Shown here: in pieces, positions 3,332 to 40,483 of the stretch
Position numbering within the stretch: position 1 is the stretch's first letter
How the letters are laid out: every line of letters starts with the position of its first letter
Origin: Thermoproteota archaeon
GTDB taxonomy: Archaea > Thermoproteota > Thermoprotei > Gearchaeales > Gearchaeaceae
Assembly (NCBI GenBank): GCA_032249315.1
Contig: JAVVGB010000001.1
Coordinates: forward strand, 4,072-68,071
Reading direction: 5' to 3'
Length of the DNA: 64,000 nucleotides
The notes under the pieces: generated by a model
The model's input: only the letters and a program-made list of their open reading frames with translations
Told to the model about the DNA's origin: nothing
Databases searched by the model: none
Position numbers and translations under genes: made by a program

Positions 3332-4457
3332 CTACTAAACGTATTATATTATATTTGAAAATGCCTTAAAAGTTTAACATTTTAAATAATTTTTATAACT
3401 TTTTACAAAAAATTGAGAAACTTACTTCTCAGCATGTGAAGTGACAATATTGGAAATCATACGAGAATAATAATGATAATAGGACTTACTTCCTTACGCC
3501 TTGAAAGGCAAGGTTTTATTTTGTAAAAGTTTTGTTCCTTAATCTATAACTCTTATTTTTGAATAAAATCAATGATGCACTGTTCCTCTAAAGGAACTTT
3601 GTCGTTTTTTCGTAATAAAAATAAATGATCTTGCATTAACTTCCAGTCAAAAAATAATAAGCATTCCTAAGATAACACTAACAAAAATCGCACTAAGAAT
3701 CTCCTTTAATTTATCTTCTTTATTGAGTTTGGGCGTTTTAACTAAAGTGTTATGAATACCAGAGTTAGTATCCCCCTACCTACTGTGTGAGCTTTACCGC
3801 ACGAATTCCTGAATAAAATTACGAAGGCCGGATTTTAATGTTTTAATTAGTGAAACAAAAATTTGGTCTCACATAGGATTCTATTGTCTCCATGGCAGGC
3901 CTTATCCAATTTCATCCAATTAGCAGGATATAGTTTATTGTCTCTAAAAATCTTGAATAAATCGATTGAAAATTACAGTTAAGTGAAGGTGAAAAAAATA
4001 GGGTCTGTAAGGGAATTGGCGAGGAATACAATGAAATAATGGGAATTAGATGGAAATTTAGTGCTACTGGCAGCTGAGCTAAGCTTAGCAGGATCCTAAG
4101 CGGCCAGGACCTTTTCGGTTCATTTAATCGCAAAATTATACGTTAATTTGAAATAAGGTTTTACGTAAACTCTGATAAAAATTGAAGTAACCCACAAAGC
4201 ATATAGTTTTGTTAGTTCTACATAAGCCTTTAAACACCAAAAATATGTTATACCTCAGCTAATAAGGATCTTTCACTCCAGCAAGCTCAAACGATTTAAT
4301 CCTCACTTTGCAACCCACACATTTTCCGCACGGTTTCTCCAAATTATTATAATAGATTTTCATTTTTATTCTCGGCTTAATTTTAACTTTTCTATTTAAA
4401 ACATATAGCTAATTTAGCGATAATCTTATATGCTAATTAAATTTTAATAGCCTGGTT

Positions 4458-4838
4458 TTAATACGGCTTTTTTATCTCAACTACTTTTACTCTCTCAAAA
4501 TCTTTTATATTTTTTGTAAGAATTGCACATTTCTCTTTAAAACCTACAGCTGCAATAATAGCATCTAGTAAGCTAATTCCATATTCTCTTCTAAATTTGG
4601 CTGCAATTTTTGCTATTTCATTATCCAACTCTACTTTTCTGAAAATTTTCAGCAACTTTTCTATCATTTCCCTTTCTTTAGCATCCTCGCATCTTTTTGC
4701 AGATAAAAGTTCTGCTTCAGTAATAACTGAGATTATTCCTTCAACTTCTTTTCTTTCTACTTTTTCTACTAGAATCCTTGCATCTGTGATATTTCTTAAA
4801 TGGTCAATTAAAATGCTAGTATCAAAAACATACTTCAT
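4458..4838 (-). CDS. vapC: PIN-domain ribonuclease toxin VapC
   Basis: 126 aa starting MKYVFDTSILIDHL, with the acidic PIN residues (D6, E42, D92…). Its start overlaps the upstream small gene by 4 nt. Confidence 0.7.
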   Translation of the reverse strand: MKYVFDTSILIDHLRNITDARILVEKVERKEVEGIISVITEAELLSAKRCEDAKEREMIEKLLKIFRKVELDNEIAKIAAKFRREYGISLLDAIIAAVGFKEKCAILTKNIKDFERVKVVEIKKPY

Positions 4839-5098
4839 ATTCCTAATCTTTTAAGTCTTTTTTCACTTTCTTTTCTCAATTTTCTAACATATCCCTCACT
4901 GGAAATTTTCCAAGTTTTCCAAAGTCCAAAAGTTTCCTCTGCTATTGTTTTTTTGGGCGACTCTAACCCTATTACTACTTTCTTTAATTTCTCATTTATT
5001 AAATATGATATTTTTTTAGTTGAGCCAAATCTCATTATTGATTCCTCAACCAACTTTTTATATATCTCATCATCCAAATTTATGGTTGTTTTAACCAT
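4835..5098 (-). CDS. vapB: VapB-type antitoxin (small DNA-binding protein) paired with VapC
   Basis: 87-aa ORF directly upstream of VapC with an ATGA-type overlap, the typical toxin-antitoxin operon organisation. Confidence 0.5.
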   Translation of the reverse strand: MVKTTINLDDEIYKKLVEESIMRFGSTKKISYLINEKLKKVVIGLESPKKTIAEETFGLWKTWKISSEGYVRKLRKESEKRLKRLGI

Positions 5099-5756
5099 AT
5101 AAAAATATTGTTACTAACAATATAAAAACTCTACGGTTATATGTTTTTAGCTCTCGAATCTTTTGCCAACTGTTCAAAAATTGTTATAATTGAATAAATC
5201 TGAATAAAACAACATCATCTTGAGTGAAATTTTAACTAAAAGATTATTCAATATTCCAAAATTTTCTTCGTTAGCTTAAGAAATTGCCAAATATTCACCA
5301 CAAACCTTTAAAGCTTATATACTCTTATCAATAGAGCTCATTCAATCATCATAGACTAATTTCTTTTTCTAACTATTCTATCTTCTTTTCCTATATGATT
5401 CCAAAATAAATCAGTAAAAATGTAATGAAAGGCTAAACCTTTCCATTTTCCATATCTACTTTCAGACAAGTTGATTTTTTTGTGCTGGGACTAACTTCTT
5501 ATTAAATAAAATTCTCGAGAGCTTTTTCTGTTCCCATGCTCTTCCCTTCAAATCAAATGTATCAGACCTTTAAAGATAATCTCACAAGATTATTTATGCG
5601 GTAGCCTGGCACTACCTGTTAAAATAGAATAAAGTTGAATAAACAATAGTAACATTGTTATAATGATAATCAGGAATAATTGGGCATACCTCTTAAATCA
5701 TAGTTAGAATTTCTATTAAGAATAAGGAGGCAAAAGCTTTAAATACTTTAATCGAA

Positions 5757-5828
5757 TGGACCGGGAGGGATTCGAACCCTCGACCTTCCGCGTGCGAAGC
5801 GGACATTCTACCACTGAACTACCGGCCC
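5757..5828 (-). tRNA. tRNA-Ala (anticodon CGC)
   Basis: Acceptor GGGCCGG/CCGGTCC with the G3:U70 Ala identity pair. Anticodon stem TCCGC/GCGGA, loop TTCGCAC, T-arm GAGGGTTCGAATCCCTC. Confidence 0.9.
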
Positions 5829-5871
5829 TTCAATAAAATAAACTAAAGAGAGAAAAATAAAATTAACAGCA

Positions 5872-5945
5872 GGCCCGGAATGGGATTTGAACCCATGCAA
5901 TAGGCTCCACAGGCCTACGAGCTACCAGGCTACTCAATCCGGGCC
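5872..5945 (-). tRNA. tRNA-His (anticodon GTG) with a genomically encoded G-1
   Basis: Reads GGCCCGGA…; G-1 pairs with discriminator C73. Anticodon loop CTGTGGA, T-arm ATGGGTTCAAATCCCAT. Confidence 0.9.
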
Positions 5946-5987
5946 ATTTCCAAAATAAATATTTAATAAAAAATCTTAAAAAGTTAT

Positions 5988-6305
5988 GTGAGGAAGTATA
6001 AGCAAATAGATTTGGCTAAGCAAAGAATTAAGATCTTATTAAATTATGCTTTAAAGTATTATAAGATCAATAAACAATTTTCAAAGAACTGTGTTTATCA
6101 TGCGTATAAAATAAAGACACGATTTAATTTAAAATTTCCTAAAGATTTTCGATCCCTATATTGCAAAAGCTGTTTTAACTTGTTATTACCCCCTGATGGT
6201 GCTAGGATTCGAATTGAAGGAAAAGGGAAAAAAATTAAAATAATAACTACCTGTTTAGATTGCGGTAGAGTAATTAGAAAAGAAGTTGAAAGAAAAATAT
6301 ATTAA
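5988..6305 (+). CDS. rnp4: RNase P protein subunit Rpp21/Rpr2 (zinc-ribbon)
   Basis: 105 aa, basic, with C-X2-C…C-X2-C (CKSCFNLL…CLDCGR). It sits in front of the S19e cluster, as in other archaea. Confidence 0.65.
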   Translation: MRKYKQIDLAKQRIKILLNYALKYYKINKQFSKNCVYHAYKIKTRFNLKFPKDFRSLYCKSCFNLLLPPDGARIRIEGKGKKIKIITTCLDCGRVIRKEVERKIY

Positions 6306-6331
6306 TAATTCTTACTTAAATTTTAACACAT

Positions 6332-6787
6332 ATGGTAGATCCTAAAATAATTCCTGCTGATAGATTCATAGCTGAGTTAGCTAGATATTTAAAAGAAAAT
6401 GTTAAAGAAATTCAGCCTCCACAATGGTCTGTATTCGTTAAAACTTCTCCTTCAAGGGAAAGATTGCCAATCCAAAATGATTGGTGGTATACTAGGGCTG
6501 CTGCTATATTAAGGAAAGTATATTTATTGCAACCAGTAAGCGTTAAAACTTTAAGAGTTTTATACGGAGGGAGAAAAAAGTTTAGTAAAAGAAGGGAACA
6601 TCATGTTAAAGCTAGCGGAGTAATAATAAGAAAAATATTACAACAATTGGAAATGGCAGGATATGTTAAAAAAACTCCCAAAGGAAGAATATTAACTAGT
6701 GAAGGACAATCATTGTTATATAAAATAGCTGATAAATTATATAATGAAATAGTTAAAGAAATTCCTGCATTAGCTAAGTATAGGTGA
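6332..6787 (+). CDS. rps19e: 30S ribosomal protein S19e
   Basis: 151 aa starting MVDPKIIPADRFIAELARYLKEN…, the S19e signature, in the conserved operon context. Confidence 0.85.
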   Translation: MVDPKIIPADRFIAELARYLKENVKEIQPPQWSVFVKTSPSRERLPIQNDWWYTRAAAILRKVYLLQPVSVKTLRVLYGGRKKFSKRREHHVKASGVIIRKILQQLEMAGYVKKTPKGRILTSEGQSLLYKIADKLYNEIVKEIPALAKYR

Positions 6788-6791
6788 GAAA

Positions 6792-7130
6792 ATGAGTGAA
6801 GATTTGGAACTTGAGGAAATTAGAAGAAGAAAATTAGAAGAATATAGAAAAAGATTAGAAGAATCCTATGATGAAGAAAGAAAAAGAAGAGAATTTGAAT
6901 TAAAGAAGGAAGAAATATTAAGGAAGATTTTAACACCTGAAGCAAGAAATAGAATTAATACAGTTAAATTAGTCAAACCTGAATTAATAAATCAACTTGA
7001 ATTACAATTAATGCAACTTGCATTGGCTGGCAAAATTAAAGAACCTTTGACAGATGAGCAGATAAAAGAGCTATTAAGGTCTATTCAAACAACAAGGGAA
7101 TTAAGGTTCAAAATTTATAAAAAAGAATAA
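6792..7130 (+). CDS. DNA-binding protein, PDCD5/TFAR19 homolog (COG2118)
   Basis: 112-aa charged helical protein in the conserved position between S19e and L39e. Confidence 0.65.
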   Translation: MSEDLELEEIRRRKLEEYRKRLEESYDEERKRREFELKKEEILRKILTPEARNRINTVKLVKPELINQLELQLMQLALAGKIKEPLTDEQIKELLRSIQTTRELRFKIYKKE

Positions 7131-7294
7131 TGGCAAGAAATAAGACCCCCTATAGAAAAAAGAAATTAGCAAGAGAAAGTAAGCTAGCAGAAGCTGTTCC
7201 TATATGGGTTACAGCGAAAACAAAAGTAGGAGGAAAAAGATTAAGAAGACATAATAGAAAAAGAAGTTGGCGCACTTCTTCCATTAAACCATGA
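7130..7294 (+). CDS. rpl39e: 50S ribosomal protein L39e (54 aa)
   Basis: Not in the ORF track because it is under 60 aa. Hand translation gives MARNKTPYRKKKLARESKLAEAVPIWVTAKTKVGGKRLRRHNRKRSWRTSSIKP*. Its start overlaps the upstream stop (TAATG) and its end overlaps the L31e start (ATGA). Confidence 0.85.
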   Translation: MARNKTPYRKKKLARESKLAEAVPIWVTAKTKVGGKRLRRHNRKRSWRTSSIKP

Positions 7295-7647
7295 GTGAAG
7301 AAAAAGAAGTTAGAAAAGGAGAAATAAAAGAAGAAGTAAAGGAAGAAACTACAGAAGAAAAATTTAAAATAGAAGATTTTCTCTATGAAGATGAAAGTAT
7401 TAAAGAAGAAAGAATTATGACAATAAATTTAAGAGATGCTAAAAAGGCTCCATTATATAAAAGAAGTAAAAAAGCTGTAAAACTTTTAAAAGAACTAGTT
7501 AAAAGATTTACAAAGCAAAAGGAAATATGGATCAGCCAAGAAGTTAATGAAGCAATATGGAAGAGGGGTATTAAGAAACCTCCTAGAAAAATAAAAGTTA
7601 AGATTATAATAACGAATAAAGATAGAGCATTGGTATTTTCTGCTTAA
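7291..7647 (+). CDS. rpl31e: 50S ribosomal protein L31e
   Basis: 118 aa with the L31e core (…ERIMTINLRDAKKAPLYKRSKKAVKLLKELVKRF…) in operon context. Confidence 0.85.
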   Translation: MSEEKEVRKGEIKEEVKEETTEEKFKIEDFLYEDESIKEERIMTINLRDAKKAPLYKRSKKAVKLLKELVKRFTKQKEIWISQEVNEAIWKRGIKKPPRKIKVKIIITNKDRALVFSA

Positions 7648-7651
7648 TTTT

Positions 7652-8326
7652 ATGGCAGGAATAGATAGAGCATTTATTTTTAATATGGAAATTATAGGTG
7701 CTTTCTCTATAGCTACAAATAAGGTTTGTTTTTTACCAAAAGGTGTATCTCAAAAAACAAAGGAATTATTTAAAGAAATTTTAGAAGTAGAAATCGAAGA
7801 AACTACAATTGCAGAAAGTAGCTTAATAGGAATTTTTGTAGCATTTAATGAAAAGGGAATATTGTTGCCTTGGAATTCTACAAAGGAGGAAAGGGATAAG
7901 ATGACTTCATATTTTGAAAATGTTGAAGTTTTGAAATCTAAATATAATGCGTTAGGTAATTTAATAAGCTGTAATTCGAGTGGTGCAGTTCTTCATATAA
8001 ATTTTAATGAGGATGAAATAAATTTAATAAAGGAAACTTTAAAAGTTAAAAATATTTCTTTTTTGCCTGAAGGAGAAAACTACTTAGCATCATTCTTATA
8101 TGTTAACGATAAAGGATTTTTAGCTTCAAACTATTTTAGTGAAAAAACGCTAGAGATGTTCAAAAATACTTTCAATACAAATGGAGGTTATGGAAGTGTA
8201 AACAGAGGAAGTAAAATTATTAAATTAGGTTTAATATGTAATAATAAAGGAGGAATTGTAGGTGGGATGACAACGGGTGTTGAAATTGGGAAAATCGACC
8301 AAATCTTCTTCGGAAAAAGTGGTTAA
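7652..8326 (+). CDS. eif6: translation initiation factor 6 (aIF6)
   Basis: 224 aa with the pentameric eIF6 repeats (MAGIDRAFIFNMEIIGAFSIATNKVCFLP…) in the conserved position. Confidence 0.9.
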   Translation: MAGIDRAFIFNMEIIGAFSIATNKVCFLPKGVSQKTKELFKEILEVEIEETTIAESSLIGIFVAFNEKGILLPWNSTKEERDKMTSYFENVEVLKSKYNALGNLISCNSSGAVLHINFNEDEINLIKETLKVKNISFLPEGENYLASFLYVNDKGFLASNYFSEKTLEMFKNTFNTNGGYGSVNRGSKIIKLGLICNNKGGIVGGMTTGVEIGKIDQIFFGKSG

Positions 8327-8513
8327 AGATTTTGAAGCTAAAGGATACATAAGAAAAGGCACTGAATTTTATTTAAGATTTAAAAAAAGGATAAAAGCAT
8401 ATTCATTAAAACATGCTATAAATATTCTGCTTTCTACTTTAGGAAGCAATTATAAAGTTAAAAGGGCTCATATTTTTATTGAAGAAATAAAAGAAATAAA
8501 AAATGAGCAGTAA
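8277..8513 (+). CDS. rplX: 50S ribosomal protein LX (L18Ae)
   Basis: The C-terminal half (…YSLKHAINILLSTLGSNYKVKRAHIFIEEIKEIK) resembles LX, and the gene order is conserved. The start is uncertain: GTG at 8277 or a later GTG at 8319; it overlaps the eIF6 3' end. Confidence 0.55.
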   Translation: MLKLGKSTKSSSEKVVKDFEAKGYIRKGTEFYLRFKKRIKAYSLKHAINILLSTLGSNYKVKRAHIFIEEIKEIKNEQ

Positions 8514-8922
8514 AGAAGCTATATTAAATAGGAAATTGATTGAATATGAATATTACAAACAATTATTGGAAAATTATCAAAATCAGTTAACTTTGATGCT
8601 AACAGTATATAATGAAATGGAAATTACTTCGAATTGCTTTGAAGAATTAAAAAAGCTTAAAGAAGATAATGTTGAAATGTTTGCATCAATAGGAAGTGGT
8701 TCTCATATTTTAATAAATTATAAACCAAACACAAAACTTCTGGTTCATGTAGGAAGTAAAATATACGTAGAATACACTTTAGAAGAAACAATTGATTTTA
8801 TAAATAGAAGGAAGAAAAGATTAATGGAAAATATTGAGAATTTGAATAAAATAATTCAAGAGTTAAGTAATATAATTACAAGAGTAGAAAGGGAAATAGC
8901 AAGATTGTCTGAAAAAAGTTAA
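8503..8922 (+). CDS. pfdA: prefoldin alpha subunit
   Basis: 139 aa, coiled-coil–beta-hairpin–coiled-coil (…ASIGSGSHILINYKPNTKLLVHVGSKIYVEYTLEE…), in the conserved position before ftsY. Confidence 0.75.
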   Translation: MSSKEAILNRKLIEYEYYKQLLENYQNQLTLMLTVYNEMEITSNCFEELKKLKEDNVEMFASIGSGSHILINYKPNTKLLVHVGSKIYVEYTLEETIDFINRRKKRLMENIENLNKIIQELSNIITRVEREIARLSEKS

Positions 8923-30546: not shown

Positions 30547-30858
30547 CTTTCTTACCATAAAAGAAGAAACTTTCAGTCTTTCAAAAATCAAGAAATAATG
30601 GGGTTTATTCCTTTGTTTGTCCCTTTGTAATAGAGGAAAAGATTTCTGCCGAATTTATTACTACACCTTCCTTATATATGAACGTAGTTAAGTTATATTT
30701 TCCAATATTTTCTTCCATCATTCCAGCATTTATCACTATCTTTTTTAGTTTAGTATTCATAGGAACCATAATAGTAATTCCGTAGTCAAAATCAACATAA
30801 TACGCTCCAGTAATGCCAATGTTTATTTTAAATATTTTAATTTTATATAAAGAATGAA

Positions 30859-31380
30859 ATGGAAACTTTCTTAGAAAATGTAATAATCGATACGGATAAG
30901 AACAAATTAAAGGAAGATGATACGTTAAAAATTAGGATTTATGCTAAATTAAACGGTAAAATAAGAGAAGTTTTTTCACCTGATATATGGGAGAAAGCAT
31001 ACGATAAAGGAGAAAGGAGATTCTTACTAAGATATTACATTGAAATATTTAAAAAAGAAAAATTTTTGAAAAAATTAATTTTAAAAGATAAAATAGTAAG
31101 AAAAGCAACATTCTTTTGGACCCGTAATCCTACAATAAAAAATAGAATATGGGTAATGTATGTGTCAGAAGAAAAGAAGCCATATCTTCCTTCAGATGCT
31201 GAAGAAGTTAAGGATAAACTATTTGTTTTAAAAAAAGAGTATTTGATAGATAATTTTAAATTAGGTAAAGGTAAGCATGAGATATTTGCTGTGGTTAAAG
31301 CGAAATGGGGAAATTATGAATTTATAAAGAAAGGAGAAGTTAAAGCAAAAAGTAATAAAGTTAAAGTAGAATGTTATTAA
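30859..31380 (+). CDS. hypothetical protein (173 aa)
   Basis: ORF track only; no motif recognised. Confidence 0.35.
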   Translation: METFLENVIIDTDKNKLKEDDTLKIRIYAKLNGKIREVFSPDIWEKAYDKGERRFLLRYYIEIFKKEKFLKKLILKDKIVRKATFFWTRNPTIKNRIWVMYVSEEKKPYLPSDAEEVKDKLFVLKKEYLIDNFKLGKGKHEIFAVVKAKWGNYEFIKKGEVKAKSNKVKVECY

Positions 31381-31653
31381 ATGTTTAAGAAAAAAATAGA
31401 AGCTACTTTTGGAAACGATTACGCAATAGAAAAAGCTGAAGAAGAATTAAAAAAATATGATTTTCGTTTTAAAAGGAAAATTCCATTAAAACTTGAAATC
31501 TTTGTTTCAAATAAAAAGGATATAGAAAAAATAACAAAAATTGTGAGAGAAAATTTTGGTTATGTTGAAGAAATAGAGACTTTTAAGAAGAGAATTATTA
31601 AAACAATAACTTATCCTTTTAAAGCTTTGCTACTTCCAAAGAAAAAGAAGTAG
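31381..31653 (+). CDS. hypothetical protein (90 aa), translationally coupled to the upstream gene
   Basis: Its start directly abuts the stop of the 30859..31380 gene (TAAATG). Confidence 0.3.
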   Translation: MFKKKIEATFGNDYAIEKAEEELKKYDFRFKRKIPLKLEIFVSNKKDIEKITKIVRENFGYVEEIETFKKRIIKTITYPFKALLLPKKKK

Positions 31654-31770
31654 TTAAGGTTCAACTTCTACTATTGATTCACATTTTGTGCAGAAAGGAT
31701 ATTCGTTAAAAGGAGATACAGGATCCTTTATAAAAACTCTTATTTCTGAACCGCAGTATTTGCATTTCAT
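31654..31770 (-). CDS. possible small Zn-ribbon protein (38 aa)
   Basis: Hand translation gives MKCKYCGSEIRVFIKDPVSPFNEYPFCTKCESIVEVEP*, with two CxxC pairs. It fits exactly between the flanking genes. Confidence 0.3.
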   Translation of the reverse strand: MKCKYCGSEIRVFIKDPVSPFNEYPFCTKCESIVEVEP

Positions 31771-31802
31771 TTTTGATATTATTTTTTAATTTTATAATAT
31801 AT

Positions 31803-32786
31803 TTAACCCCATCGTTTAAAGTGTTCCCATCCTTTACTTTCTATTACAAAATTCCTTTTTCCATCATTATAAATTACTTCTTTATTCTTAGTTATTTCTC
31901 CAATAACATTAAATTCGCATCCTAAACTTGTTAATAAATTCTTGATATCTTCTAAATAACTTTTATTAAAACAAAATAAAATTTCATATTCTTCTCCTCC
32001 TTTATATAAAGAAAGCTCCAAAGGATCTAAGTTATTAATTTCACAAAATTCATTAACTTTCTCATGAATAGGTATGTTAAAAATTCTTGCTCCTACATTA
32101 TTTAATTCACATAATTGATTTAAAGAAATAGCTAAACCATCGCTTATGTCCATGCAACAATTTAAATAAGGAGAAATCATTAAAGCTTCTTTTATTCTTC
32201 CCTTAGGTTTAAATAGATTTGCAAAAGATAAGTTCTTAATATATTCATTGCTTTTAGCTTTTTTAAACAATATTTCATATGCTACTGAATTTAAACCAAA
32301 TTTACCAGTAACACCAATTAGATCACCTATTTTTGCTCCTTTTCTTTTAATTATTCTTTTTGCTATTCCAAAAGTGAATCCTGCTATACTTAGCTCATTT
32401 GAACTAGAAGTATCTCCTCCTAAGTAAATTACATCTTCTTCTTTACATGCATCACAAATACCTTTTACCATTTCTTCAAAATCTTTTAAATCTAAACTTT
32501 TTGGAAGAGAAAAAGAAAAAAGAATTCCTAAAGGCTTTGCTCCTTTACAAGCTATATCAGATAAATTTGATATTACAGCTTTCCAACCAAAGTTATAAAA
32601 TCCCATTTCTTTAATAAAATCGGTTGACTCGTTTAAAACATCCGTATGTAATACTAGATAATCTGAAGAAGGAAGTCTTATAAAAACTGAATCATCGTAA
32701 TCTGGTTTAAAGTTAAGCTTTTTTTCAATAATTTCATGAACAATTTCAATTATTTTCCTTTCTCCTAATTCTGAAATGTTCATCAA
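31803..32786 (-). CDS. thiL: AIR-synthase-related (PurM-like) family protein, probable thiamine-monophosphate kinase ThiL
   Basis: 327 aa starting with an ELGE…KII N-terminus, with PurM-like N- and C-domains (…DISDGL…). The size fits ThiL; HypE or SelD cannot be fully excluded. Confidence 0.6.
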   Translation of the reverse strand: MMNISELGERKIIEIVHEIIEKKLNFKPDYDDSVFIRLPSSDYLVLHTDVLNESTDFIKEMGFYNFGWKAVISNLSDIACKGAKPLGILFSFSLPKSLDLKDFEEMVKGICDACKEEDVIYLGGDTSSSNELSIAGFTFGIAKRIIKRKGAKIGDLIGVTGKFGLNSVAYEILFKKAKSNEYIKNLSFANLFKPKGRIKEALMISPYLNCCMDISDGLAISLNQLCELNNVGARIFNIPIHEKVNEFCEINNLDPLELSLYKGGEEYEILFCFNKSYLEDIKNLLTSLGCEFNVIGEITKNKEVIYNDGKRNFVIESKGWEHFKRWG

Positions 32787-32826
32787 AATAAACTTAAAAT
32801 TTTATTTTAATAAATAATAATTGGAA

Positions 32827-32913
32827 GCCCCAGTAGCATAGCTTGGTAATGCGCTTGCCTCGTAAATATATCGGGAAAGCAAGAGATCGCGGGTTCAAAT
32901 CCCGCCTGGGGCT
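32827..32913 (+). tRNA. intron-containing tRNA, probably tRNA-Thr (anticodon CGT) with a ~13-nt intron after position 37
   Basis: Acceptor GCCCCAG/CTGGGGC, D-stem GCAT/ATGC, anticodon stem CTTGC/GCAAG enclosing a 20-nt loop CTCGTAAATATATCGGGAAA, T-arm GCGGGTTCAAATCCCGC. EndA is encoded in the window. Confidence 0.65.
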
Positions 32914-32975
32914 TAAAATTTACCATTATAACAATAGTTATATTTATATTTTGGTTGAAATACTATTAAGGAAGT

Positions 32976-33740
32976 ATGATTGATACACTAACAATTGAGG
33001 ACTTGCATGTAGAAGTAGAAGGAAAAGAAGTAATTAGAGGTGTAAATTTAGAAGTTAAAAAAGGCGAGATTCATGCAATAATGGGTCCAAACGGTTCAGG
33101 AAAAAGCTCATTAGCTTTAGCTATATTAGGTCATCCTAAATATAAAATAACAAAAGGAGACATTAAATTAAACGGCGAAAGTATAATTAATTTACCTACA
33201 GATCAAAGAGTTAAAAAAGGCTTATTTCTATCTATGCAATACCCAATAAGTATACCTGGAATTACTTTGCTTAGTTTAATGAGAGCTTCAATTACATCAA
33301 TATATGGATTACAACAAGATTCTAAAGAAATAGCTACCGTTATAAAAATTAAGAAGGATCTAACAAATGCTTTAAAATTACTTGGTTTAGATGAAAGCTT
33401 TAGTTCAAGATATATAAATGAAGGATTTTCAGGAGGAGAGAAAAAAAGAACTGAAATTGTTCAATTGGCAATGATAAAGCCAAAATTTGCAATATTAGAT
33501 GAAACAGATTCAGGATTGGATATAGATGGTATAAAAATAGTTTCAAATGCAATAATGGAAATATATAAAAATGGTATGGGATTAATTTTAATTACGCATT
33601 ATAACAGAATATTGAAATATATTAGACCCAACTATGTTCATGTATTAATAGATGGTAAAATAATTGATTCAGGAGGCGCTGAATTAGCTGATCATCTTGA
33701 AGAAAAGGGTTATAATTGGTTAAGAGGTGTAGGAACATGA
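32976..33740 (+). CDS. sufC: Fe-S cluster assembly ATPase SufC
   Basis: 254 aa ABC ATPase with GPNGSGKSSL, LSGGEKKR and ILDETDSGLD. Confidence 0.9.
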   Translation: MIDTLTIEDLHVEVEGKEVIRGVNLEVKKGEIHAIMGPNGSGKSSLALAILGHPKYKITKGDIKLNGESIINLPTDQRVKKGLFLSMQYPISIPGITLLSLMRASITSIYGLQQDSKEIATVIKIKKDLTNALKLLGLDESFSSRYINEGFSGGEKKRTEIVQLAMIKPKFAILDETDSGLDIDGIKIVSNAIMEIYKNGMGLILITHYNRILKYIRPNYVHVLIDGKIIDSGGAELADHLEEKGYNWLRGVGT

Positions 33741-36217
33741 GCAAAATAGATCTTAGTTTTGATTATAGTAAATACAATTTTAGAGATATTGTAGAGTATG
33801 AAATACTATTACCTAAAGGGCTAAACGAAGAAATAGTAAGGGAAATATCTAGAATAAAGAATGAACCTTCATGGATGGAAGAATTCAGAGTTAAATCATT
33901 TAAATTATTCATGGAAAAACCAATGCCTACATGGGGTGTAGATCTATCAAAACTTAGATTGGATGATATCCATTATTATGCAAAACCTACAAGCAAAAAA
34001 GGAAGAAGTTGGGATGAAGTACCTGAATATATAAAAAGAACTTTTGAAAGATTAGGAATTCCTGAAGCAGAAAGGAAATTCTTAGCAGGAGTAGGAGGTC
34101 AATATGATTCAGAAGTTGTATATCATAACTTAAGGAAAGAATTAGAAAAGCAAGGAGTAATTTTTGTTGATACAGATACAGCTGTAAGAGAATATCCTGA
34201 AATAGTTAAAAAATACTTTGGTACAGTTGTACCTCCAAATGATAATAAATTTGCTGCATTAAATTCAGCAGTATGGAGCGGAGGTAGCTTTATTTATGTT
34301 CCTGAAGGAGTTAAAGTAGAGATGCCCTTACAAGCATATTTCAGAATTAATGCTCAAAATGTTGGTCAATTTGAAAGAACATTAATAATAGCTGAGCCTT
34401 ACAGCGAAGTCCAGTATATTGAGGGGTGTTTGCCACCAGGTGAAAAGGTTTCTTTAGGAGATTCTTGGATAAATATTGAAACGATAAAACCAGGAGATTA
34501 TGTTGTTACTCATAGGGGAACTTTAGCTAAGGTTAAATTGGTAATGACGAGAAATTATAAAGGAGATATGTACAAAATTACACCAATTTCTCCTTTTAAT
34601 AGTTTTTCGCTTACCGAGGAACATCCAGTTTTAGCTATTAAGAGAGAGTGGGTAATGAAAAAGAGAAAAATAAGGAAAGAGGGTTGGCTACCAGAAGTAG
34701 ATTCTCGAAAGTTAAAGAATACAAAACCAGAATTCATTCCGGTAAGAGATCTTAAAAAAGGAGATTTTCTAATATTTCCCAAAATAAAAAATCAAATAAT
34801 AAATTCTTCAAATCTTTCTGATGAAGAAATAGAATTTTTAGGATTTTATGCTGCTGAAGGTTCAGCTTATTATCATAAAAAACTTAAACAATTTGTTGTT
34901 TCTTTGTCTTTTTCTGAAAGAGAAAAGGAAAATATTGAAAGAGTAAAGTTTCTAATAGAAAAAATCTCTGGCAAAAAAGCTATTTTAGTAAGAGATAAAA
35001 AGAAACATTCAATAAATGTAGTAGTATATTCAAAACCATTATACGATTTGTGTTTAAGACATTGCGGAAAATTGGCCAAAGAGAAAAGACTAAGCCCAGA
35101 GATATTGAATTTGCCAAAAGAAAAATTAGAAAAGTTCTTTTGGGCTTATTTTAAAGGAGATGGAAATCTTTGCATAAAAAATGGAAAAAGTAAACTTTAT
35201 CGTGTTGCAACTGCTTCAATTAATTTAGCCATTCAGCTACAAGAGATTTTAGCCAAAATTGGAATTTTCGCTAGCATTCAAGAAAGAAAAGGAGGAAAGG
35301 ATAAAATTTTGGGAAGAGAGATCAAAAGAAAAAATCAATACATTGTTGCTTTTACTTATCCTAAAAAGTGGTCAGAAGTGAGAGAAACAGAGGAATATTA
35401 TATAGTCCCAATTAAAAAAATCGAAAAGTTTGAATATGAAGGTCCAGTTTTTAATCTAGAAGTTGAAAGGGATAATTCTTATTTAGTTAAAGGATTTGCA
35501 GTTCACAATTGTACAGCGCCGATATATTTGAGTCATTCGTTACATAGTGCAGTAGTAGAGATAATTGCAAAGAAAGGAGCAAAGGTAAGATATACTACAA
35601 TACAAAACTGGAGTATAGATGTTTATAATTTAGTAACAAAGAGAGCCCATGCATATGAAGAAGCTAGAGTAGAATGGGTCGATGCAAACATTGGAAGTAA
35701 AGCTACAATGAAATATCCTTCAGTTTATCTTTTAGGAAAATATGCGACTGCTGAAATAATTTCAGTTGCTTTTGCAGGAAAAGGTCAACATCAAGATACT
35801 GGTGGAAAGGTAATTCATTTAGCTCCATATACTTCTTCTAGAATTACTTCAAAATCTGTATCAAAAGACGGTGGAAGAACTACATACAGAGGATTATTAC
35901 ATGTAGCAAAGGGAGCTAGAGGAGTTAAAGCAAGTGTAAGATGTGATGCTTTGCTTTTAGATGAATATTCAAAAACAGATACATATCCATACGTTGAAAT
36001 ATTAGAAGATGATGCTACAGTTACACATGAAGCAACAGTAGGAAAAATTAGCGAAGATCAGCTATTTTATTTAATGTCAAGAGGAATTCCAGAAGTAGAA
36101 GCATTAAATATGATAGTTTTAGGATTCTTTGAACCATTTATAAAAGAGCTACCAATGGAATATGCTGTAGAAATGAATAGATTATTAAGACTTGAAATGA
36201 CAGGTTCTGTAGGTTAA
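33737..36217 (+). CDS. sufB: Fe-S cluster assembly protein SufB interrupted by an in-frame intein (precursor 826 aa; spliced about 465 aa)
   Basis: SufB blocks flank a 361-aa insert. …RTLIIAEPYSEVQYIEG|C…intein…HN|CTAPIYLSHSLHSAVVEIIAKKGAKVRYTTIQNW… restores the canonical EGCTAP motif. ATG 33737 overlaps the sufC stop (ATGA); the ORF-track start at 33716 is a TTG. Confidence 0.85.
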   Translation: MSKIDLSFDYSKYNFRDIVEYEILLPKGLNEEIVREISRIKNEPSWMEEFRVKSFKLFMEKPMPTWGVDLSKLRLDDIHYYAKPTSKKGRSWDEVPEYIKRTFERLGIPEAERKFLAGVGGQYDSEVVYHNLRKELEKQGVIFVDTDTAVREYPEIVKKYFGTVVPPNDNKFAALNSAVWSGGSFIYVPEGVKVEMPLQAYFRINAQNVGQFERTLIIAEPYSEVQYIEGCLPPGEKVSLGDSWINIETIKPGDYVVTHRGTLAKVKLVMTRNYKGDMYKITPISPFNSFSLTEEHPVLAIKREWVMKKRKIRKEGWLPEVDSRKLKNTKPEFIPVRDLKKGDFLIFPKIKNQIINSSNLSDEEIEFLGFYAAEGSAYYHKKLKQFVVSLSFSEREKENIERVKFLIEKISGKKAILVRDKKKHSINVVVYSKPLYDLCLRHCGKLAKEKRLSPEILNLPKEKLEKFFWAYFKGDGNLCIKNGKSKLYRVATASINLAIQLQEILAKIGIFASIQERKGGKDKILGREIKRKNQYIVAFTYPKKWSEVRETEEYYIVPIKKIEKFEYEGPVFNLEVERDNSYLVKGFAVHNCTAPIYLSHSLHSAVVEIIAKKGAKVRYTTIQNWSIDVYNLVTKRAHAYEEARVEWVDANIGSKATMKYPSVYLLGKYATAEIISVAFAGKGQHQDTGGKVIHLAPYTSSRITSKSVSKDGGRTTYRGLLHVAKGARGVKASVRCDALLLDEYSKTDTYPYVEILEDDATVTHEATVGKISEDQLFYLMSRGIPEVEALNMIVLGFFEPFIKELPMEYAVEMNRLLRLEMTGSVG
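34427..35509 (+). mobile_element. intein (361 aa) with a LAGLIDADG homing-endonuclease domain inside sufB
   Basis: Begins with Cys (C238) and ends …VHN, followed by +1 Cys. Two dodecapeptide blocks are present: LGFYAAEGSAYY and FWAYFKGDGNL. Length is 1083 nt, in frame. Confidence 0.75.
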
Positions 36218-37623
36218 TGAGCTATCAATTACCAAATTTTTCATTAAAGGAAATTTTTGAAAATAAATATCAATTAAATGAAGTAAGTATTCTTACTGAA
36301 TATAGAAAGGAAGCCTTTGATTATTATAATAAATTAAATATTGAAGTTTCTCCTTTGTATATAAAAAACTTTGATATTTCAGGTTTAAATTTAGCAAATG
36401 CTAAAATAGCTTATGAAGAAAAATATGAAGCTGATAAAGAAATATTAGGATTCTTAGAAAGCATAAGCAATTTTCCTTATGCTTTAATAATAAATGGTAA
36501 GGTTTCAAAAATTAACATTCCTGAAATTTTTTTAAAAACAGGTTTAAGAATAGATAGCATAAAAAGTTATCTTTCTGAAGAAGAAAAAATAAAAGAAATT
36601 TTTAAATATAAAACGATAAGCAACAAAGAAGATAAATTTGCAGCTTTCAATGATGCATTTTTCTTAGATGGTTTATTTATTTATATTCCAAAAGGAATTC
36701 AGCTAAAGGTTCCAATAAGAATAATAAATTTAATAAACAATGAAGGAATAGTTTCTGTAGTTCAAAATTTCATAGTAGCAGATAATGATAGTAAATTTGT
36801 AATATTAGAAGAGAATTTTTCAAAAGAAGATATTTCTGTTCAATCTTTACATAGTCAAAATTTGAATGTTTATTTAAACGAAGGTTCAGAATTGGAATAT
36901 ATTACAGTTTGTAATTTTAATGAAAAGACGAGTTATTTTAGCAATAGGAGAGTTGTTTGTAATAAAGATTCAAGAATTTCATGGATCTCAGGATATTTAG
37001 GAGGATTAATAACAAGAATAAAAACTGATAATTTTATGAAAGAGCAAGGAGCTTTTTCAAATACAATAGAGCTAATTGTAGGTAACTTGAAACAAAGATT
37101 TGATATAACATCCTATTTAACCCATGCTGCTTCTTATACACAAGGAGTGGCTTTATCAAGAGCAGTTTTAAAAGATGAATCAAGAAGCTTATTAAAAGGT
37201 TTAATAAAAATTACAGAAAATGCAAAGAATTCAAATGCATATTTAGAAGAACATGCAATGATCTTAAATAGAGGTGCAAGAGCTGATTCTATTCCTGGAT
37301 TAGAAATTGCAAACAATGAAGTAAGAGCTACTCATTCTGCATCGGTAGCACAAATAGATGAAGAACAAATATTTTATTTAATGAGTAGAGGTTTAAGTGA
37401 AAATGAAGCAAAGAAACTATTAACTTTAGGATTTTTTGATCCTCTTTTAGCAAAGATTCTTTCAGAAAGTATAAAAGAAAAAATTAAGGAATTAATTGAA
37501 GATAAAATTGAAAATAGAAAGAAAAAGATAGAAGAAAGATTAATCATAACAGAAGAAATAAAAGAATTTAAAGAATTATCTCCTGAAAAAATGTTTGAAA
37601 CACATTATAAATATAGAAAATGA
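36217..37623 (+). CDS. sufD: Fe-S cluster assembly protein SufD
   Basis: 468 aa with a SufBD beta-helix core (…EEHAMILNRGARADSIPGLEIANNEVRATHSASVAQIDEEQIFYLMSRG…); ATGA overlap with sufB. Confidence 0.8.
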   Translation: MSYQLPNFSLKEIFENKYQLNEVSILTEYRKEAFDYYNKLNIEVSPLYIKNFDISGLNLANAKIAYEEKYEADKEILGFLESISNFPYALIINGKVSKINIPEIFLKTGLRIDSIKSYLSEEEKIKEIFKYKTISNKEDKFAAFNDAFFLDGLFIYIPKGIQLKVPIRIINLINNEGIVSVVQNFIVADNDSKFVILEENFSKEDISVQSLHSQNLNVYLNEGSELEYITVCNFNEKTSYFSNRRVVCNKDSRISWISGYLGGLITRIKTDNFMKEQGAFSNTIELIVGNLKQRFDITSYLTHAASYTQGVALSRAVLKDESRSLLKGLIKITENAKNSNAYLEEHAMILNRGARADSIPGLEIANNEVRATHSASVAQIDEEQIFYLMSRGLSENEAKKLLTLGFFDPLLAKILSESIKEKIKELIEDKIENRKKKIEERLIITEEIKEFKELSPEKMFETHYKYRK

Positions 37624-37922
37624 AGGTAAAAATTGGAGAAATAAAAAATTTAATTGAAGGTAATATATATTCAAAGGATATAAACAATGAACATATAATA
37701 TTTTTTAAACTTGGAAATAAAGTATATGCTCTTGAAGGATATTGTACACATGAAAAAGCAGATTTAGCTTATAGTATACTTACAGAAAATGAAATAATAT
37801 GTCCTTTACATTTATCTTCTTTTAATATAGAAACAGGTCAAGTATTAAATCCTCCAGCTGAAAGAAACTTAAAAACATATAAAGTAGAAATAATTAACGG
37901 TGAAATTTTTATAGAAATTTAA
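37620..37922 (+). CDS. Rieske-type [2Fe-2S] ferredoxin-like protein
   Basis: 100 aa with CTHEKADL and CPLHLSSF (CxH…CxxH). Confidence 0.7.
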   Translation: MKVKIGEIKNLIEGNIYSKDINNEHIIFFKLGNKVYALEGYCTHEKADLAYSILTENEIICPLHLSSFNIETGQVLNPPAERNLKTYKVEIINGEIFIEI

Positions 37923-37945
37923 ATTTGTTTATGTAAAGTAAAACT

Positions 37946-38356
37946 ATGAGCGATATTTATTACGAGATAATTCTTGAACATTATAAATTTCCTAGAAATT
38001 ATGGTAAAATAGAAAATGCAGATATTAAAGTAAAAGATTCGAATCCTTTATGCGGTGATGAAATTGAATATTATATAAAATTAGATTCTGAGAAAAAGAG
38101 AATTGAACAAATAAAATTCATTGGAAAAGGATGTGCAATAAGCCAAGCTTCAGCTTCAATTTTATCTGAGTTAGTAAAAGGTAAAACTTTAGATGAAATA
38201 AAAAAGCTTAAGAAAGAAAATATTTTAGAAGAGATGGGAAATCCTTATTTAGGTCCTTCAAGAATAAAATGTGCTACATTGTCTTTAAAGGTATTAAAGT
38301 TAGGAATATATGCATTCTTAGGTCAAAAATTATCTTCAGAAGAAGGTTCTCTTTAA
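37946..38356 (+). CDS. sufU: SufU/IscU-like Fe-S scaffold (NifU N-terminal domain family)
   Basis: 136 aa with the three conserved Cys (NPLCGDE, GKGCAISQAS, IKCATLS). Confidence 0.75.
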   Translation: MSDIYYEIILEHYKFPRNYGKIENADIKVKDSNPLCGDEIEYYIKLDSEKKRIEQIKFIGKGCAISQASASILSELVKGKTLDEIKKLKKENILEEMGNPYLGPSRIKCATLSLKVLKLGIYAFLGQKLSSEEGSL

Positions 38357-38392
38357 AATTTTTAGGCAAAATTTAATTATATTATATTTGGA

Positions 38393-38476
38393 GCAGGGGT
38401 TCCCTAGCCAGGTCAAAGGGGTGGGGCTTAGGACCCTATGGCGAAGGCCTTCGTGGGTTCAAATCCCACCCCCTGC
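38393..38476 (+). tRNA. tRNA-Leu (anticodon TAG), long variable arm
   Basis: Acceptor GCAGGGG/CCCCTGC, anticodon loop CTTAGGA, variable arm ATGGCGAAGGCCTTC, T-arm GTGGGTTCAAATCCCAC. Confidence 0.9.
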
Positions 38477-38625
38477 ATATTTATTTCGAATAATTTTCAT
38501 CTTGTTTTTTTGGTTAATATTTCGTTGATTTATTTAAAAGTAGAATAATTTTCATATTTTCAGTCCAAATATCACATTATTTTTAAAAAACTTAGAAAAT
38601 AATCGGTTAATATTTCAAATACGAT

Positions 38626-38640
38626 TTTTAAATTTTTATA
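38626..38640 (+). promoter_or_regulatory. putative archaeal TATA box for glmS (leaderless transcript)
   Basis: TTTTTAAATTTTTATA lies about 25-35 nt upstream of the ATG at 38663, the spacing expected for a BRE/TATA driving a leaderless mRNA. Confidence 0.3.
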
Positions 38641-38662
38641 CCGTTAACCTAAATTAAAGAAT

Positions 38663-40483
38663 ATGTGTAGAATCTTTGCTGGAATAATTAAAGATGGTGA
38701 TATTGCTCCTTTATTAAGAATTGGTTTAAAAAGATTAGAATACGGAGGCTATGATTCAGCTGGAATTGCTACAATTTATGATGATAAAATTTACTTAAAA
38801 AAAGATAAAGGAAAAATAGATGAAATCCATCAAAGATTAAATTTTGATGACCTAAAAGGAAAAATTGGAATAGCTCATACAAGATGGGCAACACATGGAG
38901 CTCCTTCACAAATTAATGCCCATCCCCATTTAGATTGTAGCAAAAACATAGCAATAGCTCATAATGGAATAATAGAAAATTTTTTGGAATTAAAACAAGA
39001 ACTTGAACAGCTTAATCATAAATTTGTCTCAAGAACAGATACAGAAGTAATAGTACATTTAATTGAAGAATATTACAAGTTAACTAAGGATTTTAAAGAG
39101 GCTTTTATACAAGCTATAAAAAGATTACAAGGCTCATATGCTATTTCAGTAATTACAACTTATGAACCAGATAAAATTTTCCTTGCAAAAAATGGTGCTC
39201 CTTTATTATTAGGTATAGGAAAAGAATTCAATTTTGCTTCCTCAGATACTATAGCATTTATAGATAAAACTAAGGAATGCATTCCTTTAGAAGATAACGA
39301 AATAGCAATAATTTCTCTTAATGGCTATGAAATATATAAATTAGAAGGGAAAACAAAGGTTAACAGGAAACCAATAATTTTAAATTGGAGCTTGGAACAA
39401 GCAAGCAAGGAAGGTTATGATCACTATATGCTAAAAGAGATAATGGAACAGGAAACATCTATGAGATGGTCTTTAAATGCCCAAAAGATTTATTTAGATT
39501 TAATTTCAGAATTTATAGATAAAGCTAATAAGGTATTTTTAGTAGGGGCAGGAACTTCATATCATTCATGTGTTGTAGGTTCATATTATTATTCAAAGCT
39601 TGCTACAATTACTACAATTCCTGTAATAGCTTCAGAATTCATAGAAAATTATGGCTCCTCAATAGATATTAACACAGCAATATTGTTTGTTTCTCAATCA
39701 GGAGAAACAGCTGATGTATTAAATGCAGTAGATTTTGCAAGAAAAAGAGCATGTACAATATTAGCTATTTGTAATGTAATAGGTTCAACTTTAACAAGAG
39801 TAGCAAGAGCATATGTTTTGCAACAATCAGGACCCGAAATAGGAGTAGCTGCTACTAAAACATATACATCGCAGCTAATAATACATTTACTTTTAGCTTT
39901 GAATTTAGCTAAAAAAAGAGGAAAAATTTCACAATATGAAATGGATGAAATGAAAGAAACTCTTAGCGAAATACCAATTTTAGCAGGAAAAATTTTAAAA
40001 GAAAAAAGCAAAGAAGTAAAGGAAGTAGCAAAGAAAATAATGAATAAGAACCATGTATTCTTTTTAGCTAGAGGATTAAATTATGGAACAGCTTTGGAAG
40101 GAAGATTAAAGCTTTTAGAAATAGCATATATTCCTTCAACAGCCTATCCTGCAGGAGAATCTAAGCATGGACCAATAAGCTTGATAGAAGAAGGAGTGCC
40201 AGTTATTTTTATAGCTCCTAAGGATGAAACAAGGAAGCAAATAATTGGAAATATAATGGAAATGAAAGCAAGAGGAGCAGAAATAATTGCTTTAGCAGAA
40301 GAAGATGATGAAGAAATAAGATCTTTAAGCAATATATTCATAGGAATGCCTAAAATGAATAGCATAATTACACCTATTTTATACATTTTACCTTTACAAC
40401 TTTTAGCATATTATACTGCAGTATTAAAAGGACTTGATCCTGATAAACCAAGGAATTTAGCTAAATCTGTAACTGTACTTTAA
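38663..40483 (+). CDS. glmS: glutamine--fructose-6-phosphate aminotransferase (isomerizing) GlmS
   Basis: 606 aa with an N-terminal Ntn Cys2 (MCRIF…), a class-II GATase domain, two SIS domains and the C-terminal …KPRNLAKSVTVL. Confidence 0.9.
   Translation: MCRIFAGIIKDGDIAPLLRIGLKRLEYGGYDSAGIATIYDDKIYLKKDKGKIDEIHQRLNFDDLKGKIGIAHTRWATHGAPSQINAHPHLDCSKNIAIAHNGIIENFLELKQELEQLNHKFVSRTDTEVIVHLIEEYYKLTKDFKEAFIQAIKRLQGSYAISVITTYEPDKIFLAKNGAPLLLGIGKEFNFASSDTIAFIDKTKECIPLEDNEIAIISLNGYEIYKLEGKTKVNRKPIILNWSLEQASKEGYDHYMLKEIMEQETSMRWSLNAQKIYLDLISEFIDKANKVFLVGAGTSYHSCVVGSYYYSKLATITTIPVIASEFIENYGSSIDINTAILFVSQSGETADVLNAVDFARKRACTILAICNVIGSTLTRVARAYVLQQSGPEIGVAATKTYTSQLIIHLLLALNLAKKRGKISQYEMDEMKETLSEIPILAGKILKEKSKEVKEVAKKIMNKNHVFFLARGLNYGTALEGRLKLLEIAYIPSTAYPAGESKHGPISLIEEGVPVIFIAPKDETRKQIIGNIMEMKARGAEIIALAEEDDEEIRSLSNIFIGMPKMNSIITPILYILPLQLLAYYTAVLKGLDPDKPRNLAKSVTVL

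Follow-up and report, generated by a model that had tools for sequence, protein, structure and literature searches.

An in-frame intein with a predicted LAGLIDADG homing endonuclease in the sufB gene of an uncultured archaeon

The interrupted sufB gene and its insert

The window analysed here is the whole of a 64,000-nucleotide stretch from a Thermoproteota archaeon (contig JAVVGB010000001.1, positions 4,072 to 68,071). Its sufB gene, part of an operon for iron-sulfur (Fe-S) cluster assembly, is interrupted in frame by an insert of 361 amino acids (aa) that carries the sequence and predicted fold of an intein with a LAGLIDADG endonuclease domain. An earlier reading of the sequence (the original prediction) had proposed such an intein at the conserved EG/CTAP site of SufB. 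All positions below are those of the window, and a slash within a sequence marks an insertion point or splice junction.

The open reading frame (ORF) list contains a single long forward frame at 33716..36217, equivalent to 833 aa when read from a TTG codon. An ATG codon at 33737 gives 826 aa and overlaps the stop codon of sufC as ATGA. This ATG was favoured as the start because it is backed by the intein-free homologs P0120-P0134, and all close homologs begin with MSKIDL. Removal of the insert leaves 465 aa. These are the lengths given in the original prediction, which set an ORF of 826-833 aa against a SufB of about 465 aa.

The insert begins with Cys1 (TGT, 34427-34429) and ends with His360-Asn361 at 35509. 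The next codon, TGT at 35510-35512, encodes the +1 Cys. The original prediction had placed an in-frame insert of this length, beginning with Cys and ending with His-Asn followed by Cys, at exactly these positions. Deletion of the insert produces ...SEVQYIEG/CTAPIYLS.... The precursor matched the TIGR01980 sufB model with 697 bits (cut-off 346), one part of the match lying on either side of the insert. Against E. coli SufB (PDB 5awf chain A, E 2e-110) the 465-aa product aligned continuously across the junction, in agreement with the original statement that removal restores YIEG-CTAPIY. In the alignment to 5awf_A the +1 Cys occupies the position of E. coli Cys254, a sulfur-acceptor residue. The Cys after the junction was invariant at that position in every SufB locus examined.

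Profile models were then compared with the insert itself. It scored 42.5 bits against Pfam Intein_splicing (gathering threshold 35.8) and 46.4 bits against LAGLIDADG_3 (gathering threshold 22.5), while its C-terminus scored 17.3 bits against TIGR01443 intein_Cterm (cut-off 15.6). Intein blocks A, B and G and an atypical block F were found along with LAGLIDADG blocks C and E, the latter two being the dodecapeptide motifs named in the original prediction (Table 1).

Conservation was examined in an alignment of 50 intein relatives (A1), which was also the input for an AlphaFold model. T63, H66, E144, G145, K220, D245, G246, N343, H360 and N361 were invariant or at least 90% conserved among the 50 relatives. 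The LAGLIDADG helices, LGFYAAE144G and FWAYFKGD245G, each end with an acidic residue and then Gly; E144 and G145 were invariant in A1, and G244, D245 and G246 were at least 90% conserved. Block F is recognisable (GPVFNLEVERDNSYLV), with Asn343 at the usual Asp position (F:4) and no His at the usual place. Since Asn343 is invariant across the intein family it appears to be a family trait and not a sign of decay. Some active inteins, such as Sce VMA, likewise lack the block F Asp. No further inteins of the same family were found elsewhere in the window.

The AlphaFold model of the intein had a mean pLDDT of 94.4 and a pTM of 0.91. The 16 best PDB matches obtained with Foldseek were all intein homing endonucleases (E 2.8e-19 to 5e-12). 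The top matches, to the TliVMA, PI-SceI, PI-PkoII, PhoVMA and PI-PfuI inteins, were full-length with TM scores of 0.59-0.69, and the next were to the free-standing LAGLIDADG enzymes I-DmoI and I-Tsp061I (probability 1.0). A sequence match to the endonuclease domains of the TliVMA intein (7qsu) and PI-PkoII (2cw7) ran through both LAGLIDADG motifs. Helices (H) and strands (E) in the model follow the order H132-144, E145-150, E155-163, H167-181, E186-190 and E195-201 in the first half and H231-245, E246-251, E255-262, H265-277 and E283-294 in the second half. According to the model the insert has a Hint fold, and the predicted fold of the endonuclease domain is the pseudo-dimeric alpha-beta-beta-alpha-beta-beta-alpha arrangement of LAGLIDADG proteins. 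Scores above the Pfam and TIGR thresholds and a modelled fold shared with solved intein endonucleases both bear out the identification of the insert as an intein in the original prediction.

Table 1. Features of the sufB locus and of the intein, in window coordinates.
Feature	Position	Strand	Basis or remark
sufC, SUF-system ABC ATPase	32976..33740	+	operon position and Walker motifs, by eye in the translation
sufB precursor (N-extein, intein and C-extein), 826 aa and stop	33737..36217	+	TIGR01980
N-extein, 230 aa, C-terminal ...SEVQYIEG	33737..34426	+	
Intein, 361 aa, Hint splicing domain split by LAGLIDADG endonuclease domain	34427..35509	+	Pfam, TIGR01443, AlphaFold, Foldseek
Block A, Cys1, CLPPGEKVSLG	34427..34459	+	CLPxxE start common to about 100 relatives
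Block B, SFSLTEEHPVLA, TxxH (T63-E-E-H66)	34601..34636	+	T63 and H66 at least 90% conserved
Block C, first LAGLIDADG motif, LGFYAAEGSAYY, intein aa 138-149	34838..34873	+	Glu144 putative catalytic acid
Block E, second LAGLIDADG motif, FWAYFKGDGNL, intein aa 238-248	35138..35170	+	Asp245 putative catalytic acid
Blocks F and G, GPVFNLEVERDNSYLV and KGFAVHN, with Asn343, penultimate His360 and terminal Asn361	35441..35509	+	
C-extein, 235 aa and stop, starts at +1 Cys (CTAPIY...)	35510..36217	+	
sufD	36217..37623	+	TIGR01981, 222.5 bits
SufU-type sulfur-transfer/scaffold gene, intein-free	37946..38356	+	TIGR01994, 110.8 bits

The region has about 27% G+C. The suf operon is intact, with the order sufC-sufB-sufD-...-sufU. 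Its SufU-type gene reads GKG/CAIS without interruption at the site equivalent to the position of a sister intein clade in IscU-type proteins, which is described below. Besides sufD and the SufU-type gene, the neighbours include a small ORF with a Rieske-like Cys/His pattern, recognised by eye. Just 5' of sufC, ARAGORN identified a tRNA-Ala(TGC) at 32826-32914 (+); its length of 89 nucleotides (nt) suggests an intron, as is common in archaea. The window encodes the archaeal markers aRF1, a CDC48-type ATPase and the tetraether lipid synthase Tes, which identify the host as an archaeon.

Empty alleles and the history of the intein

Metagenome contigs were scanned with the precursor, which led to contig L088 (OGCB01000016.1, 59 kb). 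Positions 1-3693 of L088 correspond to window positions 30785-34429 at 95.5% nt identity, and 3690-8648 correspond to 35509-40472 at 96.5%. The two alignments abut with four bases in common, including the TGT that is repeated at both ends of the intein, and the 1083-base insert is absent. The sufB gene of L088 has 1398 bases, is 97.2% identical in nt and 98% identical in aa to the spliced window gene, and reads CAGTATATTGAGGGT/TGTACAGCGCCGGTATAT at the junction. The original prediction had proposed a check of relatives for an empty allele at this site, and L088, about 96% identical in nt with breakpoints exactly at the ends of the insert, provides one.

A survey of GTDB, for which 80 loci were fetched, found most sufB genes uninterrupted, including that of a Nitrosopumilus genome (L008). 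The insert is absent from 73 of these loci, from E. coli SufB and from the 98%-identical relative, and the junction is gap-free in alignment to intein-less SufB. Its absence from these homologs excludes the contrary case raised with the original prediction, namely that the insert is a domain specific to SufB and conserved throughout its homologs.

A protein search seeded with the L088 allele returned 15 further distinct intein-free SufB proteins of 465 aa, from various samples, each separated from the spliced product by only 4-9 residues. The next SufB relatives, 86-88% identical, are intein-free too. The exact 826-aa intein-bearing protein was not on record in public collections, and no identical locus was found among the GTDB representatives. 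Because the intein-bearing allele is nested among near-identical empty alleles, a recent gain of the intein in the lineage of the window appears more economical than its precise loss elsewhere.

A search with the intein alone generated 119 relatives. The closest is a fragment, P0001 on contig L081, with 91% aa and 86% nt identity over intein residues 173-361. The C-extein of this protein is only 61% identical in aa and 65% in nt, so that identity falls at the splice junction. The reverse pattern was seen in the Nitrososphaerota protein P0007, in which the C-extein is 82% identical and the intein 46%. Such discordance between intein and extein identities is the pattern expected from horizontal spread of inteins among divergent sufB genes. 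Comparison of the window with L081 (dS 0.78) gave a dN/dS of 0.063 for intein aa 173-361 and of 0.071 when restricted to the endonuclease part. These low ratios indicate strong purifying selection on the endonuclease.

The insert was also examined for a compositional anomaly, and none was found. Its G+C content matches the host, and its third-position G+C (GC3) is 0.19 vs 0.17 for host genes. This suggests either that the donor was similarly AT-rich or that the intein has resided for a long time in AT-rich genomes. The 20 codons around the junction have a GC3 of 0.5 vs 0.17 genome-wide, a level that only about 1% of 20-codon stretches attain; the ten codons on either side (34397-34426 and 35510-35539) have third-position G+C of 0.6 and 0.4, respectively. 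The footprint of a GC-richer donor, left by co-conversion, was considered for this region and rejected since the empty allele L088 has the same codons. The even spread of differences between the window and L088 along the gene also speaks against a co-conversion tract.

Proposed splicing and homing, and alternative readings

The insert is very probably a canonical class 1 intein with a double-motif LAGLIDADG homing endonuclease, lying in frame in sufB with Gly230 on one side and the conserved Cys equivalent to E. coli Cys254 on the other. On the sequence evidence it appears to act as a selfish mobile element, of a type already well known. The steps proposed here are taken from established class 1 intein chemistry. 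The 826-aa precursor would be translated, and Cys1, aided by Thr63 and His66 of block B, would form a thioester at the Gly-Cys1 bond. The N-extein would then pass to the +1 Cys, after which Asn361 would cyclise with the help of His360 and free the intein. An S-to-N shift would rebuild ...YIEG-CTAP... in a 465-aa SufB able to assemble with SufC and SufD. The free 361-aa protein would be expected to cut intein-less sufB around ...TATATTGAGGGN/TGTACAGCGCCG..., and repair from an intein-bearing copy would spread the intein (homing). A capability for homing is suggested by the presence/absence polymorphism, the discordance between intein and extein, the purifying selection and the retained catalytic residues.

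Several points weigh against this interpretation. Asn343 of block F stands where most class 1 inteins carry Asp, and Gln-5 and Lys-38 replace the histidines reported to promote splicing in Mycobacterium tuberculosis SufB; with either replacement the kinetics could differ. The nearest sampled intein relative is 86% identical in nt (dS 0.78), so there is no direct donor among the sampled relatives. A co-conversion tract was not demonstrable beside the insert when the window was compared with L088. Present-day splicing and DNA cutting are presumed from the retained residues and motifs. Finally, a second, uninterrupted sufB is possible elsewhere in the genome, as the view is limited to 64 kb.

The intein could splice and yet carry a dead endonuclease, in which case it would be a remnant passed on by vertical descent, no longer homing and decaying towards a mini-intein. 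Many inteins are in such a state, a degenerate insert of 189 aa occupies the same site in the GTDB locus L006, and no co-conversion tract was seen beside the insert. We nevertheless consider this unlikely. The two catalytic acidic residues have been kept, as has the invariant Lys220, and the dN/dS of the endonuclease part is that of a constrained protein (0.071). The nesting of the allele among at least 15 intein-free alleles only 4-9 aa away points to recent gain, and the intein/extein discordance likewise argues against a vertically inherited remnant.

An improbable alternative, drawn by analogy with a proposal for M. tuberculosis SufB, is that the intein has been co-opted as a post-translational switch, with a disulfide between Cys1 and the +1 Cys delaying SufB maturation under oxidative or nitrosative stress, either alongside selfish mobility or in its place. 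The position of the +1 Cys, equivalent to the sulfur-accepting Cys254 of E. coli, would suit such a role. The M. tuberculosis SufB intein, whose splicing is reported to be redox-sensitive (PMC8529194, PMC8891592), has the same site and the same pair of Cys1 and +1 Cys; PMC8529194, citing Topilina et al. 2015, describes a Cys1-Cys+1 disulfide that prevents splicing during oxidative stress. Almost all members of this population lack the intein, however, so regulation there does not require it, and no sequence feature separates a sensor from a plain intein.

The two remaining explanations have a negligible probability. That the 361 aa are a lineage-specific accessory domain kept in mature SufB is compatible with the continuous reading frame and with nothing more, as the insert belongs by sequence and fold to the intein and LAGLIDADG families, breaks the conserved YIEG-CTAP directly before an invariant Cys, and is missing from E. 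coli SufB, most GTDB and metagenome loci and the 98%-identical ortholog, the breaks falling precisely at Cys1 and Asn361. An assembly or binning artefact joining the DNA of two organisms might account for the lack of a public record of the exact protein, but the insert keeps the reading frame exactly and has canonical splice junctions, its third-position GC is close to that of the host, both flanks are colinear with L088, and many independent assemblies show this architecture at the same site.

Related inteins and known systems

Among the GTDB loci, seven from Chloroflexota and actinobacterial metagenome-assembled genomes (L001-L007) have an insert at the same EG/C position as the window intein. 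These inteins are 367-368 aa long, the remnant in L006 apart, and only about 26% identical to the window intein. A search seeded with this Chloroflexota lineage returned only Chloroflexota-type SufB proteins. At least two further insertion points in SufB were identified in the fetched loci, one near extein residue 124 and the other at 293/294 (DANIG/SK) (L005, L037, L085, L086, L087 and P0215), and a single sufB in L087 holds three inserts. Apart from two outliers, every relative examined has a C-extein of 235 aa.

Public calls of intein-bearing SufB proteins (P0005, P0007, P0011 and P0072) are 574-581 aa long, begin some 15 residues into the intein and carry the name 'SufD family'. A naturally split or frameshifted SufB was considered and rejected, since the DNA of L082 (4275-6746) holds an intact ORF of 823 aa; the shortened call is an annotation artefact.

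About 100/119 intein relatives reside in a different host protein, the IscU/NifU-type scaffold (PF01592), at the site FKTFG/C-x-AAIA (P0009, P0012-P0109; L163 1501-2946). The FG/C site lies directly before the second of the three conserved cysteines of IscU. As in SufB, the IscU-hosted intein interrupts an Fe-S assembly protein between a Gly and a conserved Cys. The IscU-hosted inteins are 35-43% identical to the window intein over the full 361 aa, with a CLPxxE start, a GFAVHN end and the conserved catalytic positions in common. In a neighbour-joining tree, 97 IscU-hosted and 11 SufB-hosted inteins formed two sister clades. Hosts of the IscU clade include Thermoplasmatales, Nanoarchaeota, Omnitrophota and others, and the gene for one member, P0020 (L163), adjoins a cysteine desulfurase gene. 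A literature search produced no paper describing native IscU inteins.

The target sites in sufB and in the IscU-type gene were aligned in one comparison, in which 13/24 bases around the junction were alike (GG./TG.ACAGC..C.ATA). Both sites encode G/CTA.I, which accounts for the match, and the likeness is suggestive only. We tentatively propose, with a confidence that stops a little short of an even balance, that one intein lineage (CLPxxE...GFAVHN) colonised two unrelated Fe-S assembly proteins, in each case before a critical Cys that follows Gly, the jump perhaps having been made through the shared core GGN/TGYACAGCNNCNATA (G/CTA.I).

Two of the relatives differ in architecture or host. P0009 has two inteins, a mini-intein before the Cys of the CGD motif (GNPI/C...VLHN/CGD) and a large LAGLIDADG intein at FG/C. 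P0117 is more distant (29% identity) and lies in a putative methyltransferase at LDLG/CAKG, again at a Gly followed by Cys.

The element itself is of a textbook kind, and both its host gene and its insertion site have been studied before in M. tuberculosis; what is new is a member in an uncultured archaeon, and nothing changes conceptually. It does offer a clean natural case, in which one archaeal population has an intein-bearing sufB beside many near-identical empty alleles; the polymorphism defines a candidate target site and provides two matched alleles for work on homing and splicing. The EG/C site of SufB has been invaded in both archaea and bacteria, by at least two dissimilar intein lineages. 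As intein-bearing SufB genes are often truncated in public annotation and named 'SufD family', any census of SUF systems or of inteins will count them wrongly. The IscU-type sister clade is a possible case of an intein moving between functionally related genes. Were this correct, the window intein would represent the SufB side of an ectopic transposition by which an intein passed between two genes of linked function.

Inteins in SufB are well known from mycobacteria, and they have been listed for Ferroplasma (PMC8891592, PMC8529194). The M. tuberculosis precursor (Pps1, Rv1461) has a 252-aa N-extein, a 359-aa intein with Cys1, His358 and Asn359, a +1 Cys and a 235-aa C-extein (PMC8891592). The window intein resembles it in host protein, in the Cys1/His-Asn/+1 Cys arrangement, in its intact LAGLIDADG domain and in size (361 vs 359 aa), and the C-extein is 235 aa in both. 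PMC8529194, citing Huet et al. 2006, states that M. tuberculosis SufB must be spliced to bind SufC and SufD. The two systems differ in host, an actinobacterium vs an archaeon, and in the residues upstream of the junction. His-5 and His-38 of M. tuberculosis SufB are reported to speed splicing (PMC8891592), and most SufB proteins, including that of M. tuberculosis, have His at both positions, whereas the window SufB has Gln at -5 (34412-34414) and Lys at -38 (34313-34315), as do the intein-free near-identical alleles. His-5 and His-38 are in register with ...VHYVEG/C in the fetched SufB relatives. This register and the 235-aa C-extein indicate that the window intein probably shares the insertion site of the M. 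tuberculosis intein, a placement that rests on published lengths and the His positions. No mycobacterial proteins were returned by searches with the window intein or with the same-site Chloroflexota intein, although such searches depend on shared words.

Ferroplasma acidarmanus likewise has an intein in an archaeal SufB (InBase), and both the intein and its insertion site diverge from those of M. tuberculosis (PMC8891592). The PI-SceI, TliVMA, PI-PkoII and PI-PfuI inteins share with the window intein a two-part Hint domain into which a double-LAGLIDADG domain is inserted. They are only 12-17% identical to it, and their hosts are V-ATPase, DNA polymerase and ribonucleotide reductase. PI-SceI and PI-PkoII are both larger than the window intein, in which only a short loop rich in Lys/Arg (aa 72-103) stands in the place of the separate DNA-recognition region of PI-SceI.

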